The notes: a model not told the origin generated them from the letters alone. A stretch of DNA of 64,000 nucleotides from Bacteroidales bacterium (GCA_027064095.1 JAMOQI010000006.1:258-64257); one strand, 5' to 3'; counted from the first letter of the stretch, positions 13,320-51,650 are shown. Numbers and translations are program-made.

Positions 13320-13715
13320 GGGGCTGACTGGATTTGACAGCAAGATGAAGAGGTATGTAAGCATGTCGTGCTTTGAGAATTCGCACGTAAATCTTGGTTC
13401 TCAACTTTCAATTGGCGAAAATAATTTTGCTCTTGCTGCTTAATCGAAGTTTAGTAGATTAGCTTTATCCCGAAGCTAGGCTTTGGGACGAGACATCTCT
13501 CGGAAGGTTTAGTTTCACCCCATTCCGATATAGAGGTGCTAGCAATGTGAAACTAGATAAAATGATGTTCGTGCATTTTATCGAAATTTTATCGAACTAA
13601 GAAGTATGTTGGTTGTTTATCGCCGGCATGCTTTCGAAAATCCAAGAATAAACTAAGCATGTAGAAAGCATATTGCTTCCTTGTTTGGACCGGGGTTCGA
13701 TTCCCCGCAGCTCCA
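13320..13715 (+). ncRNA. ssrA: tmRNA; tag peptide (A)GENNFALAA* at 13414-13443
   Basis: 5' GGGGCTGACTGGATTTGAC; 3' T-arm GGGGTTCGATTCCCC and acceptor strand CAGCTCCA with a G3.U pair. The tag ORF ends in ALAA. CCA is not encoded (followed by CTT). Confidence 0.97.
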
Positions 13716-13720
13716 CTTTC

Positions 13721-27501: not shown

Positions 27502-27586
27502 TATGAAACGAACATGACAATTTTTAATTATAAATTGACCCACAAGGTCATGATTAAAATATTGTTATGTGACTCCATATTACCAA
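27502..27586 (+). promoter_or_regulatory. Conserved leader element, copy 1: uORF MKRT* (27503-27517) within a long hairpin
   Basis: ~90% identical to the reverse complement of 51347-51432. Confidence 0.7.
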
Positions 27587-27605
27587 CTTAACAAATTTTG
27601 AACAT

Positions 27606-30188
27606 ATGAAATTATTTAAAAGTATATTAATAATAGCCTTAACAATATTTGCAATAAATATTAATGCTCAAATTTATAATATTGCAACTAATAATGGACA
27701 AACAATAAGTACATGTTCAGGAACATTCTATGATAGTGGTGGGCCTACCGGAGGTTATGTAGCTAACGAAACATATACTATAACTTTTTGTCCCTCAACA
27801 ACAGGAGCATCAATAAATGTAGATTTCACAAGTTGGAATTTGGGAGCGGGAGATAATTTGGAGATTTTTGATGGACCAACAATCTCTTCCCCTAGCTTTG
27901 GAGTATTAAGCTCTAATCTTTCCCCAGTAAATATGATTATAAGTGCGTCAGTGTTAAACACTAGTGGTTGTTTAACATTTAAATGGACATCAACGGGAAC
28001 AGGTGCAGGTTGGGTAGCTAATTTAAGTTGTGGTTTACCTTGTCAGAATTTTTATGTTGACATACTTTCTTCGACGCCACCATTTCATATAGATAGTGGA
28101 TTTTATTATATTGATATTTGTCCTGGAGACACTGTAAGCATAACAGCACAAGGCAACTATGGACTAAATGATTCTATATATCATCAAGATGATTTAACCT
28201 CAACATTTATGTGGGATTTGGGTAATTACACAACTGATACAGCCCAGACTGTAACTACTGTATATGATACAATCAAAGGCTATAATGTAGAACTTAGTGC
28301 TTTAGACACACTCGGCTGTCTAGCTTCTCAAACTCCAAAAATAAGAGTAAGATTAAGTACAAGACCAGATTTTGATGGCACACATCAGGTATTAAATGAA
28401 ATATGCCAAGGTGATAGCACTAGCTTGATAGGAGTAGCAACAACCAAAACATGGCAGGCTAACTCATCATTATCACATGCTGGAACAACTTATTTACCCG
28501 ATGGTAGTGGTGCTTCTTATACTTCTACATTAATATTTAATGTATTTGCACCAGGTCAAACTGTACAGAATGTATCAGATATATTATCTATAAATGCAAC
28601 ATTGGAGCATTCATATCTTGGTGATTTGAATATTACTGTTACTTGTCCTAATGGACAGAGTGCTACTCTGAAATCATACCCTGGCGGTTCCTCAACATTT
28701 CTTGGCGAACCTATTGATAATAATTCTCAGCAAGTAGCTGGATTAGGATATGAATATGCATGGAAATCAACAGGAACAACTACAATGCTTAATGCTGTAG
28801 GAACATACAATCACACCTTTACTGATGTACTGGGAACAACATATAGTAATCATTCTTATCTACCTCCATCCTATGCATATCCTGCAACATCTACTGCTCT
28901 TGGACCTTTTCCGTTGGTTACTTACCTTCCCGAAACTCCTTATTCTACATTTATTGGGTGCCCTTTAAATGGGTCATGGACAATTACTGTTACTGATAAC
29001 CTCTTTATTGATAACGGTTTTATTTTTGCTTGGGGAATTGATTTTTCACAAAGTGTACTCCCTGTATCTTGGTCGTATCAACCGGTTATCTCTTCGCAAG
29101 CATGGAATAATGCATCTTCTATTATTAGTACAACAGGAAGTAATGCTGTAATTATGCCCTCTGATAGTGGTCAGTATAATTATACATATACTGTAGTAGA
29201 TGACTTTGGATGTACTTATGATACAACAATCAGTGTAACAGTTGTTCCTACTCCCGAAGTAGATTTGGGAAATGATACTATTATTTGTGGATTCGGAATT
29301 GTAAATATTGATGCTGGTAATAATGTTCCAAATAGTACTTATTCATGGAATACAGGAAATACTAATCAAATTCAACAAACAAATATTAGTGGTGACTATA
29401 TTGCAACGGTTTCTTACTCCAATGGCAATATAGTATGTTCAAATACTGACACTATGCATGTTGACCAATATGATATGGCAGATATAAACCTTGGAGAAGA
29501 TACCTGCGTTACTGAAGACCTTGTTCTACATGCCGGTAACACTGGTCATAATCCTCCTTTTGTATATCTATGGTCTGATGGATCCACTCAAGAATCCCTT
29601 ACTGTTACTTCACCAGGAACATATTCCGTTACTGTAGCAATAGACCCCAACAGCCCTTGTATTGAAGAAGATGAAATCGTTGTCACTATGTTTCAACCTG
29701 ATTTCCTTGGTGATGATCAAGAGTTTTGCAGTTTCGAAGATGTAGGTGTTGTCGTACCTCCAGACGGAACCGGCATGTCACACCAATACAAATGGTCTAT
29801 GGATGGTAATATCTTGAACACTAATGATAATTTTATTGCTCAAAAATTTATTCCTGTTGGCGACCATATAGTCAAGGTAGAAGTTGACAACGGTTGTACC
29901 GATGAAATAAAACTAACTTCAAAAGACTGCCAATTGGAAATACCTAATATTATAACTCCTAATGGTGATGGAGCAAATGACAAATTTAAAATTGAAGGAC
30001 TCTTAGACTTATCTAATTCTACTCTAATAATATACAATAGATGGGGCAAGAAAGTATATGAAAGTTCAAATTATCAAAATGATTGGGATGGCGATAATCT
30101 TGCTGATGGGACATATTTCTATGTACTTAGGACAAATGAAGGTGTTGAAAAGGAATATAATGGAAGCTTAACAATAATGAGAAAATAA
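27606..30188 (+). CDS. T9SS type-B sorting domain (gliding-motility C-terminal/CHU_C) protein with CUB-like and P-proprotein-like domains
   Basis: Signal peptide; TCSGTFYDSGG CUB-like start; EHSYLGDL..GCPLNGSWTITVTD; C-terminal IPNIITPNGDGAND...IYNRWG..YQNDWDG..GTYFY. Confidence 0.88.
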   Translation: MKLFKSILIIALTIFAININAQIYNIATNNGQTISTCSGTFYDSGGPTGGYVANETYTITFCPSTTGASINVDFTSWNLGAGDNLEIFDGPTISSPSFGVLSSNLSPVNMIISASVLNTSGCLTFKWTSTGTGAGWVANLSCGLPCQNFYVDILSSTPPFHIDSGFYYIDICPGDTVSITAQGNYGLNDSIYHQDDLTSTFMWDLGNYTTDTAQTVTTVYDTIKGYNVELSALDTLGCLASQTPKIRVRLSTRPDFDGTHQVLNEICQGDSTSLIGVATTKTWQANSSLSHAGTTYLPDGSGASYTSTLIFNVFAPGQTVQNVSDILSINATLEHSYLGDLNITVTCPNGQSATLKSYPGGSSTFLGEPIDNNSQQVAGLGYEYAWKSTGTTTMLNAVGTYNHTFTDVLGTTYSNHSYLPPSYAYPATSTALGPFPLVTYLPETPYSTFIGCPLNGSWTITVTDNLFIDNGFIFAWGIDFSQSVLPVSWSYQPVISSQAWNNASSIISTTGSNAVIMPSDSGQYNYTYTVVDDFGCTYDTTISVTVVPTPEVDLGNDTIICGFGIVNIDAGNNVPNSTYSWNTGNTNQIQQTNISGDYIATVSYSNGNIVCSNTDTMHVDQYDMADINLGEDTCVTEDLVLHAGNTGHNPPFVYLWSDGSTQESLTVTSPGTYSVTVAIDPNSPCIEEDEIVVTMFQPDFLGDDQEFCSFEDVGVVVPPDGTGMSHQYKWSMDGNILNTNDNFIAQKFIPVGDHIVKVEVDNGCTDEIKLTSKDCQLEIPNIITPNGDGANDKFKIEGLLDLSNSTLIIYNRWGKKVYESSNYQNDWDGDNLADGTYFYVLRTNEGVEKEYNGSLTIMRK

Positions 30189-49654: not shown

Positions 49655-50311
49655 ATGAAAACACGATTTAGTTTACTAATAATTATACTTTTTATATCAT
49701 CAACAAGCTTATTTTCTCAATTCAGATTTAGCTATGGAGGTAAACTTGGCGGTGCTTCAACTAATCTAACCGGAGTTGGATTAAAAGATTTTATTCCTGC
49801 ACCAAAAGTTAAATTTGTTGGAGGTCTCATTACTAATTTTGCCTATGGTAGTAGATTTGCACTGCAAATTGAAGCATTATATTCAGGAAAAGGTTCAGCT
49901 TTTAAATACTATGCAGATAATAGCATTTATGTAGGAAAAGCAAGCATAGAAGAGAAATTAGGTTATTTTGCTGTTCCTGTTATATTACAATTTAAAATGG
50001 GTGATAAAGATAATTATTTCCACTTCGACGGAGGTATTGTTTACAACACTTTAGTTCATGATAAATATAATGGAACAATTATTATTACTGATGATAAAGG
50101 TAATGAAATTGAACAAGAAATGACCATTGAAGAAGACCCTGCTAAAACAGATTTAAGCTGGGCAATTGGCATTGGACTGGTAGCTAATGGATTAAATTTT
50201 GATTTCAGATACGAAATAGGAACAGATGCTGTATTTCAACAAAAAGAAGGTAATCCTCAAATTAACAATCGATCATTTCAGGTTACTGTTGGCTATACTT
50301 TAGTTTACTAA
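49655..50311 (+). CDS. PorT-like outer-membrane beta-barrel protein
   Basis: Signal peptide, YGGKLG, LQIEALYSGKG, YFAVPV, terminal strand FQVTVGY. Confidence 0.75.
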   Translation: MKTRFSLLIIILFISSTSLFSQFRFSYGGKLGGASTNLTGVGLKDFIPAPKVKFVGGLITNFAYGSRFALQIEALYSGKGSAFKYYADNSIYVGKASIEEKLGYFAVPVILQFKMGDKDNYFHFDGGIVYNTLVHDKYNGTIIITDDKGNEIEQEMTIEEDPAKTDLSWAIGIGLVANGLNFDFRYEIGTDAVFQQKEGNPQINNRSFQVTVGYTLVY

Positions 50312-51328
50312 TTCTAAAGATGCGATTTTTATAACTAGTGAAGCATTAGCTTTAGCATCAAATTCTTCAGTTGGAATTATGATTTTTTTCACTCCTTCTC
50401 TTTTATCTATTCCATATTGGTATGCCTTATCGTAATAAGATAAACTAATATCCACAACTTTTCTAAAATCATTATTTTCTAATGCTTCCAAGGCCTCTTT
50501 AAGATTATTACCACCTATTCTCTTCTTTATTCTAACAAGTGCTTTCTCCAATTCACTTTTGTCTAAACCTGCATAATCATGTAACAAATGCCTAATTCTT
50601 AGCTCCTTAGATTTATTAATTATAAAAAGATCTGATTCTCTAATTCTATTAAAAAGCTCATCAACTATTCTAACTTTACCCATACCTTTACTTTCATCTT
50701 CAAACCAAACTACCCTATTTGGGTCTATATCAAGCCATTCTTCAGCAAGGTTATTTTCAAATTGTTCGTTTGTTGGTTGAGGTTCTAAACCAATTTGACC
50801 ATATGAACTACCTCGGTGACGTGCAAGTCCTTCCAGGTCGATAAACTGCTGTCCTAATTTCTTCATTTCAATAAGAATATCAGTTTTGTTGCTACCAGTC
50901 ATACCTCCAAGTATATTTATTTTTTGTGACCTTAGGAAAGACTGTCGAATATAGTGACGATATGCTTTATATCCTCCTTCTAAAGTATGAGCTTCGAGTC
51001 CGGCGGTATTAAATAACCAAGCCATACTTCCCGATCGCATACCTCCACGCCAACAGTGCACTAAAATTTTCATATCAATGGCAATTTCTTTTGCCTGTTC
51101 CACATATTTATACATTTTAGGTCCAACTATTCTTAATCCCTCCATTACAGCAATATCCTTACCTTGTCGCTTATAAATAGTGCCTATTATTGCCCTCTCT
51201 TCATTTGTGAAAAGTGGAATATTATATGCTCCAGGGATATGTCCTTGTGCAAATTCTGCCGGAGTTCTAACATCAATAATTGGATATTTTTTCGCCTCTG
51301 ACAAAAACTCTTTCGCTTCGTATTTCAT
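50300..51328 (-). CDS. mnmH: tRNA 2-selenouridine(34) synthase
   Basis: Rhodanese domain IDVRTPAEF..GHIPGA, HCWRGGMRS, LEGGYKAYR; P-loop GMTGSNKT; DLEGLARHRGS. ATG at 51328. Confidence 0.93.
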   Translation of the reverse strand: MKYEAKEFLSEAKKYPIIDVRTPAEFAQGHIPGAYNIPLFTNEERAIIGTIYKRQGKDIAVMEGLRIVGPKMYKYVEQAKEIAIDMKILVHCWRGGMRSGSMAWLFNTAGLEAHTLEGGYKAYRHYIRQSFLRSQKINILGGMTGSNKTDILIEMKKLGQQFIDLEGLARHRGSSYGQIGLEPQPTNEQFENNLAEEWLDIDPNRVVWFEDESKGMGKVRIVDELFNRIRESDLFIINKSKELRIRHLLHDYAGLDKSELEKALVRIKKRIGGNNLKEALEALENNDFRKVVDISLSYYDKAYQYGIDKREGVKKIIIPTEEFDAKANASLVIKIASLELVN

Positions 51329-51346
51329 ATATTTAATTTTCTTAAT

Positions 51347-51432
51347 TTGGTGATATGGAGTCACATAACAATACTTTAATCATAACCTTGTGAGTCTATT
51401 TATGATTAAAAAATTGTCATGTTCGTCTCATA
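51347..51432 (-). promoter_or_regulatory. Conserved leader element, copy 2: uORF MRRT* (51431-51417) within a long hairpin, 5' UTR of mnmH
   Basis: ~90% identical to 27502-27586; lies just downstream of a TACCTTTG -7 box (~51450-51457, minus strand). Confidence 0.7.
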
Positions 51433-51650
51433 TATAAATATTTATTCTGCAAAGGTATTAATAATGATATTAGCAGCAAATACAATTATATAATCTTACA
51501 AAACAGCTTACATATGACAATAAAATTAATTCTTTCAAAGTGAAATTTCAAACAAATAAATGTTAGTAAATACAAAGTATTGCTTATTTATTACAACTTA
51601 TTTTAAATATTTTTGGATTAATTATAAACGAAAAAAGTATTTTTACTTAA

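Follow-up and report, generated by a model that had tools for sequence, protein, structure and literature searches.

The mnmH gene (tRNA 2-selenouridine synthase) of this Bacteroidales genome is preceded by one copy of a multi-copy repeat unit that is fused to gene starts and that has been gained and lost between close species. The repeat belongs to an apparently undescribed family of the Bacteroidia, with units of ~85–105 nt that are interspersed, sometimes tandem and patchily distributed in the class, and it is probably mobile. We consider it likely that the unit lands on gene starts and brings its own initiation region with it, and that the mnmH leader is a passenger of this process and not a sensor of selenium or of UGA. 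The evidence comes from the structure of the unit, from its placement in this genome and in related ones, and from orthologous genes that stand without it.

Results

Two units in the window

The window, a 64,000-nucleotide stretch of Bacteroidales DNA, carries mnmH on its minus strand (50300–51328, 342 aa), and the encoded protein matches the MnmH model NF008750 with 374 bits against a cut-off of 241. The −7 consensus of Bacteroides promoters is TAnnTTTG. A box of this Bacteroidetes type, TACCTTTG (51457–51450, minus strand), was found upstream of mnmH, as had been proposed; it lies in native flanking sequence outside the repeat and is followed, after an 18 nt spacer, by an upstream ATG (51431–51429). 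This ATG forms the 5′ junction of the unit, as either a duplicated or the native start codon, and opens a four-codon mini-ORF, ATG AGA CGA ACA TGA (MRRT*, 51431–51417). The long imperfect hairpin spans 51433–51353 and consists of an AUAUG/CAUAU foot, the stem segments ACAUGACAAU/AUUGUUAUGU and UUUUAAUCAUAA/UUAUGAUUAAAG and an apical loop; in the predicted fold the AUG of the mini-ORF is paired within the foot. The 3′ arm ends with UCCAUAU (51359–51353; family consensus GUUCCAUnn), which is complementary to the AUG region of both junctions and which we refer to as the anti-start. Beyond it lies an A/U-rich tail with two G residues, CACCAAAUUAAGAAAAUUAAAUAU (51352–51329), which is predicted to be unpaired and is the putative translation initiation region of the repeat itself. 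Finally, the 3′ junction ATGAAA (51328–51323) provides the last 6 nt of the repeat and, at the same time, codons 1 and 2 of mnmH, the ATG of which occupies 51328–51326.

The second unit is on the plus strand (27503–27611), where it begins 8 nt past the end of the upstream ORF and leads into a gene for an 860-aa secreted protein with a T9SS type B sorting domain. It comprises the mini-ORF ATG AAA CGA ACA TGA (MKRT*, 27503–27517), a hairpin at approximately 27502–27579, a tail (27580–27605) and the terminal ATGAAA (27606–27611), with which the gene starts at 27606. The hairpin parts of the two units differ at eight positions (seven substitutions and one indel), while the comparison from ATG to ATG shows 12 substitutions and two indels that cancel out, leaving a spacing of 103 nt in both. 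Each unit folds into one long hairpin, with a minimum free energy (MFE) of −24.4 kcal/mol (z = −4.64) for the mnmH copy and −21.6 kcal/mol (z = −3.70) for the second, and in neither case did any of 200 shuffled sequences fold as well. The elements of the original prediction, namely two copies with eight differences, a long hairpin, an MRRT-UGA mini-ORF and a 103-nt spacing, are thus all present in the sequence; its coordinates are right to within one base, the mnmH ATG starting at 51328 and not at 51329. The similarity of the two copies is far above chance because both belong to a multi-copy repeat family.

Units stand at the starts of unrelated genes

The genome assembly (2.13 Mb, 84 contigs, 85.6% complete) was searched with BLAST and nhmmer, which yielded 14 full-length units at 11 loci and about five partial loci. 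Three of the 11 loci are tandem pairs with the common junction …AAACAT/ATGAAAC…. Public contigs end inside the element, over which the summed depth is 236 compared to 10.6 alongside. The genes behind the units are unrelated and include, besides mnmH, those for a short-chain dehydrogenase (SDR), RimO-, Mpl-, FabK/NMO- and HypE-like proteins, a nucleotidyltransferase, S41 and M23 peptidases, a HAD hydrolase, a lipase-like protein and several secreted or T9SS proteins. In all, units precede at least 14 unrelated genes other than mnmH in this genome. Partial copies are mostly 3′ parts (six or seven, against a single 5′ part), an excess that is expected if loss of the tail and its ATG would kill the gene.

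To describe the placement of the unit we took 76 distinct 3′ ends from this genome and seven congeners. Sixteen are followed by another unit. Among the remaining 60 non-tandem ends, 50 continue at the unit's ATG without a gap into an ORF that has at least 60 codons or has no stop before the locus ends (one of the 50 is a reverse-strand self-match of the palindrome and has to be discounted); four enter a shorter ORF (<60 codons) and six have lost their ATG. The gene begins with ATGAAA in 52 of 54 gene-adjacent units of the genus. For a rough background we took 1039 long ORFs of this genome from their first ATG, and 17% of them have AAA as the second codon. The original prediction had named random orientation or position relative to genes as the mark of a plain repeat; the copies found here are co-oriented with the downstream ORF and abut it. 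The exception is locus L005 (C21:2163–2382, plus strand), where a tandem pair lies between two minus-strand ORFs with no gene behind it and the 3′ ATG has decayed to ATAGG. It is the one locus of its kind in this genome.

We also examined the transcription context. A TAnnTTTG box is present inside none of 65 units, while such boxes are found 25–32 nt upstream of the 5′ junction ATG at three of the 11 loci, and two or three of the 11 have an intercistronic location inside operons, including one unit between hypD and hypE. From the lack of an internal box and the presence of boxes upstream or an operon location, it follows that the unit is probably transcribed as a leader or as intercistronic RNA.

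Orthologous genes without the unit

Upstream sequence of mnmH was readable in 10 other species of the genus, and eight of the 10 orthologues have no unit. The closest species, G001, is among those lacking it (mnmH 77% identical at the amino acid level); there, an orthologous box, TAACTTTG, stands 17 nt before the native mnmH ATG. Given the corresponding spacing of 18 nt between TACCTTTG and the upstream ATG in the present genome, the ATG of the "uORF" occupies the place of the original mnmH start. In two closely related species, G007 (L055) and G014 (L059), mnmH is preceded by two to three tandem units of a different subfamily that has a CATATGGCC tail. In these units an ORF that starts at an internal AUG ends in a UGA overlapping the mnmH AUG (AUGA). 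In G013 (L057), a species without the element, the region upstream of mnmH contains two or more copies of a direct repeat (ATCCGCATAATCCATAGCATCCGTGTTCCCCAAAAAA-like) that is unrelated to it.

Other genes show the same variation. The unit in front of the RimO-like gene is absent in all five relatives examined and that of the nucleotidyltransferase gene in both of two relatives. In G001 the Mpl gene has a tail-like remnant alone, directly before the ATG, and similar hairpin-less remnants that keep the tail stand before apparently intact genes. Among the public DNA contigs examined, none joined across an empty mnmH site. The ATGAAA at both ends of the unit is compatible with a target duplication, with a target preference or with sequence belonging to the element, and the species are too diverged to tell these apart.

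The distribution of the unit bears directly on the proposal that it is a leader peptide specific to mnmH that senses selenium or the efficiency of termination at UGA. MnmH uses selenophosphate, selD is present in the genome (393.9 bits), and related units precede mnmH in G007 and G014 as well, all of which would suit such a role. The same unit, however, precedes SDR, RimO-, Mpl-, FabK- and HypE-like genes, peptidases and T9SS proteins, whereas most congeners have an mnmH without it, as described above. In addition, element searches gave no match on C65, the contig that holds selD; the best SelB match reaches 195.6 bits, below the cut-off of 242, in this 85.6% complete genome; and there is no Rfam or SECIS match. 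The TGA itself is replaced in part of the copies and the mini-ORF is not conserved in the family (see below). We therefore reject this reading, to which we assign next to no probability. The selD match (C65:19373–20296, plus strand, L203) falls within a 738-codon open frame; this exceeds twice the length usual for SelD and may encode a fusion protein.

One architecture across the class

By BLAST the unit is found in seven of 14 other species of the genus and yields at most one weak match in 26 other families. An exact degenerate pattern searched against species representatives matched only a handful of MAGs, labelled Bacteroidales, Bacteroidetes and Paludibacter, and under-reports the family relative to covariance models. 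Two such models were used. The first, R1, was built from 48 units of the genus and has matches in 18 of 149 genomes from other genera of the order; the second, R2, was built from the order-level matches of R1 and has matches in 23 of 150 other genomes across the class (22 of 149 without the unpublished G255). The carriers include two complete genomes, G119 and G277, the latter with six hits.

All 48 units that were read outside the genus (38 from the order and 10 from the class) share one architecture. It consists of nnATGAAAC(G/A/C)A(N)CATG, a variable stem and loop, CATG(N)G(N)GTTCCATnn(G)ACC, an A-rich spacer of 20–25 nt and C-nn-ATGAAA. ORFs of at least 60 codons are abutted by 25 of the 38 order units and nine of the 10 class units. 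The stems can be wholly different between lineages yet complementary, for example AACCAACAUG/CAUGUUGGUU in G233 and G308. Within the genus, 83.6% of the alignment cells assigned to stems are paired, compared to 30–47% when the partners are slid by one to three columns; seven pairs change on both sides, and subfamilies have wholesale compensatory stems. This pairing was scored on a hand-set structure; RNAalifold returned no consensus from the MAFFT alignment because the subfamilies are out of register in it.

The original prediction did not recognize a named family, and we found no Rfam match either. With Rfam 15 at gathering scores the window gave no match except to tmRNA (RF00023, 156.9 bits), the gene for which is located at 13320–13718 on the plus strand. 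The element region gave only chance miRNA and snoRNA matches of 12–14.5 bits at E values up to 10, and 19 loci from other genera gave nothing at E up to 0.01. Literature on MITEs and start-codon repeats in Bacteroidetes, searched together with the motif strings, contained no description of the family within a scope that left most subscription journals outside.

Variable mini-ORF and conserved ends

The features conserved across the family are the two copies of ATGAAA, the GTTCCAT and the spacer. The mini-ORF is variable. In the genus it mostly reads MKRT* or MKRA*, with TAA in place of TGA in copies whose stem has ACATAACAA. Outside the genus the uORF has four codons in 20 of 43 units, the rest having 2–30 codons or reading through into the gene (four units); CATG is kept in 29 of the 43 and CATGA in 20, and the distances from ATG to ATG are spread evenly over the three frames (15/13/15). 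Thus, the MRRT-UGA uORF, which had been taken for a conserved feature, keeps neither its length nor its stop nor its frame family-wide. Given the UAA of several copies, the limited share of four-codon uORFs and the random frame, we read the uORF with its stop as an apparent by-product of start-codon duplication and of the palindromic CATG rather than as a sensor. In L191 (G308), L161, L163 and L169 no stop separates the 5′ junction ATG from the gene, with which it shares its frame, and an N-terminal extension of ~30 residues is formally possible.

A second ORF, starting from an AUG that overlaps the UGA of the uORF, was considered as a relay for translational coupling and rejected. It is open for 25 codons in subfamily A, reads MTIF* in the mnmH copy and ends on the AUGA of the gene in seven of 65 units. 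There is no avoidance of stops (four stop-creating variants observed, 2.2 expected), and frame-breaking indels are frequent.

The tail resembles the initiation regions of this genome, which have no Shine-Dalgarno (SD) sequence and show a peak of A at −11 to −13. The consensus tail of the genus has A at these same positions, and the last 26 nt hold no or one G in 48 of 65 units.

Pairing of the anti-start

Because the anti-start is complementary to the AUG region of both junctions, we considered whether the unit might be a portable translational switch. The anti-start GUUCCAUnn would pair either with the decoy AUGAAAC, leaving the AUG of the gene free, or with the gene's own CnnAUGAAA, which would be occluded; the balance would be set by ribosomes on the mini-ORF, by temperature, by a helicase or by a loop-binding protein, and the repeat would spread a common post-transcriptional control to many genes. 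In 65 of 74 units, the dinucleotide that follows GTTCCAT can form Watson-Crick or wobble pairs with the one preceding the gene ATG, in five pair types (AT/AT, CT/AG, AC/GT, GT/AC and CC/GG); 2000 shuffling trials gave 43.9 such units on average and never more than 52. The dinucleotide before the 5′ ATG is complementary to that of the anti-start in only 43 of 74 units. The same holds outside the genus, with 30/32 for the gene ATG versus 18/32 for the 5′ ATG. The hairpin foot is therefore matched to the element's own 3′ end, and the bases 5′ of the upstream ATG look native. This preference favors a switch; direct repeats at the two ends, one of which makes up the hairpin foot, would however produce the complementarity automatically. 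Furthermore, it does not extend into gene-specific codons, where the contiguous run is 0.74 versus 0.60 in shuffled sequences (p 0.08) and 1.97 versus 1.93 of five positions are paired (p 0.38), and the pairing of anti-start and start comprises only ~5 bp in this genus.

Folding gives a similarly mixed picture. Of 27 folded units, 22 have a fully paired 5′ AUG; the mnmH copy is among these, and its main AUG is unpaired. The MFE structure pairs the anti-start with the gene's own start codon in nine of the 27, and blocking of the 5′ arm draws the main AUG into pairing in 25; both results favor a switch. At columns 10 and 112 of the order-level alignment A3, 35 of 40 units retain an A·C mismatch in the foot, AUGAAA:UUCCAU, where a U instead of the C would restore pairing; read on the other strand, these two bases form a G·U wobble. 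The sense strand folds better in 46 of 65 genus units, while at the order level the two strands are equal (18 versus 21 of 40), which counts against a switch; the strand asymmetry as such is uninformative on whether the constraint is on RNA or on DNA.

Two further points favor the switch: the architecture is kept across the whole class, and initiation in Bacteroidetes is sensitive to structure, according to PMC6847099. Against it stand the lack of a common function among the downstream genes, the lack of conservation in uORF length, stop and frame, and the hairpin-less tail remnants before apparently intact genes. On balance we regard a switch as rather unlikely. Of the original proposal of a translation-coupled cis-regulatory RNA, then, a structured and non-randomly placed element is retained and the pairing around the AUGs could, by the folding models, be remodelled; the tie to mnmH and selenium and the role of the uORF as a sensor are not.

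Candidate routes of spread

No autonomous copy of the element was found, and the nhmmer matches contain no longer element with the same ends. The examination of transposases covered Y1/RAYT enzymes. This genome encodes a RAYT (NF047646, 82.6 bits, cut-off 80) at C7:179–727 on the minus strand (L062), with GC-rich palindromes of its own in inverted orientation on either side (CCGCACGAATCCTTTCGTGTGG-like); these are different from the element and mark a separate REP/RAYT system. RAYT was a promising candidate for the mobilizing enzyme in the genus, where it occurs in seven of eight element-bearing species versus one of seven others, although these kin are not independent. It was rejected at the level of the class, where homologues are present in 14 of 23 element-bearing genomes versus 50 of 127 others; since nine of the 23 lack it, RAYT is not required.

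The units might alternatively be a non-mobile 5′ cassette, made up of leader and start codon, that is copied by gene conversion or illegitimate recombination at ATGAAA and forms arrays by slippage in the manner of a minisatellite. The terminal direct repeats, the tandem arrays with common junctions and the lack of a linked transposase are consistent with this, as is the finding that copies are more alike within one genome than between genomes. The tandem pair on contig C67, however, combines two different subfamilies, as independent arrivals would produce more readily than slippage. For a homology of 6 nt, tens of loci in one genome would be many, and a patchy class-wide distribution together with conserved ends and free interiors is what transposon ends display. 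A cassette of this kind is accordingly a poor candidate, and we think it very unlikely.

A mobile element could also find start codons by base-pairing, with GTTCCATnn guiding it to ATGAAA in analogy to the guide sequences of IS200/IS605, and the same anti-start, once transcribed, would toggle between decoy and gene AUG. If so, one and the same sequence would direct transposition to its targets and control genes in bacteria that do not use SD sequences. We rate the chances of this idea as low.

Discussion

We propose that each unit, reading ATGAAAC, 5′ arm, loop, 3′ arm, GTTCCATnn(G/C)ACC, an A/U-rich and G-poor spacer of 20–25 nt and C-nn-ATGAAA, would arrive by insertion or recombination at the ATG(AAA) of a gene. 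The old start codon, still behind the native promoter and initiation region, would thereby become the 5′ junction AUG; buried in the hairpin foot, it would in this lineage open only a mini-ORF of two to four codons. The gene would then be translated from the repeat's own AUG, which would lie in an unstructured spacer of the kind used by the SD-less ribosomes of Bacteroidia, and the mnmH unit would be a 5′ UTR passenger that keeps the gene expressible. As described in PMC6847099, Bacteroidetes lack SD sequences, tune initiation by mRNA structure and are depleted of extra AUGs near starts. Translation from the repeat's AUG fits this account; the present genome is likewise SD-less and A-rich at its gene starts.

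Three observations run counter to this proposal. The predicted pairing of the anti-start with the gene start, seen in one third of the MFE folds, would hinder translation rather than keep it intact. Hiding a decoy AUG does not explain the A·C mismatch that is kept in the foot. Finally, the C21 locus has two units and no gene behind them.

The closest functional parallels are REP2 of Neisseria and the inverted repeat (IR) of Borrelia plasmids, which are described in PMC3184786 as carrying a promoter, a ribosome binding site (RBS) and an ATG directly upstream of many ORFs. According to the same source, these are interspersed repeats of 100–150 bp; like the present units they form internal stem-loops, stand with a constant orientation right before many unrelated ORFs and have their initiation region and start codon fused to the gene. 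REP2 is, however, said there to have its own promoter, an SD-type RBS and two small stem-loops and to lack terminal inverted repeats (TIRs), whereas our family has neither an internal TAnnTTTG nor an SD sequence. Also unlike REP2, it has a single long hairpin that pairs the second copy of the start codon, a covarying anti-start, tandem arrays and a class-wide spread. The likeness is one of functional kind, as judged by architecture, and we claim no relation in sequence.

MIRUs, too, are presented in PMC3184786 as units of 40–100 bp that are often tandem, co-oriented with the genes beside them, transcribed within operons and overlapping the codons of adjacent genes with their ends, and for which empty versus filled sites suggest insertion, as here. 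MIRUs carry ORFs that bridge their neighbors, unlike the present units, in which an ORF seldom ends on the gene's AUGA and stops are not avoided; they are also GC-rich and come from another phylum. With MITEs and REP/RAYT systems (IS200/IS605-like Y1) the family shares short, non-coding, multi-copy, palindromic and patchily distributed units with conserved ends and variable interiors. In our unit ATGAAAC…GTTCCAT forms an inverted repeat, beyond the 3′ arm of which lie a conserved spacer of 25–35 nt and ATGAAA; unlike in MITEs and REPs, therefore, the 3′ third of the unit (spacer and start codon) is outside the inverted repeat. The BrickBuilt MITE of P. gingivalis has IS5-type ends that are unrelated to those of our unit. 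The unit also recalls uORF or leader-peptide attenuators and bacterial SECIS elements, which likewise place a short ORF ahead of a hairpin in the 5′ leader. It differs from these in that peptide, stop and frame are not conserved, no terminator U-tract follows the hairpin and SelB has no match above the cut-off.

Recognizing the repeat removes a tempting mis-annotation, that of a selenium riboregulator upstream of mnmH. Each copy is moreover a natural experiment that confronts a working gene with a foreign initiation region and a decoy AUG in front of it, in an SD-less lineage that is sensitive to AUGs and structure. Should the element prove mobile, such precise targeting of ATG(AAA) would be unusual. 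In practice, the units break metagenome assemblies and will confuse start-codon calling as well as screens for uORFs and riboswitches in Bacteroidia genomes.

The units themselves appear to be invaded in some relatives. At L037, L038, L086, L087, L089, L092, L093, L095 and L096 a GC-rich palindrome of ~19–20 nt (CCTGCCTGCGGTAGGCAGG-like) sits inside the anti-start, at CCAT/AT, and another small palindrome (CCCGATAGCTATCGGGG-like) is present in the loop or 3′ arm of L037, L093 and L084. Both seem to be nested small repeats that target the element.
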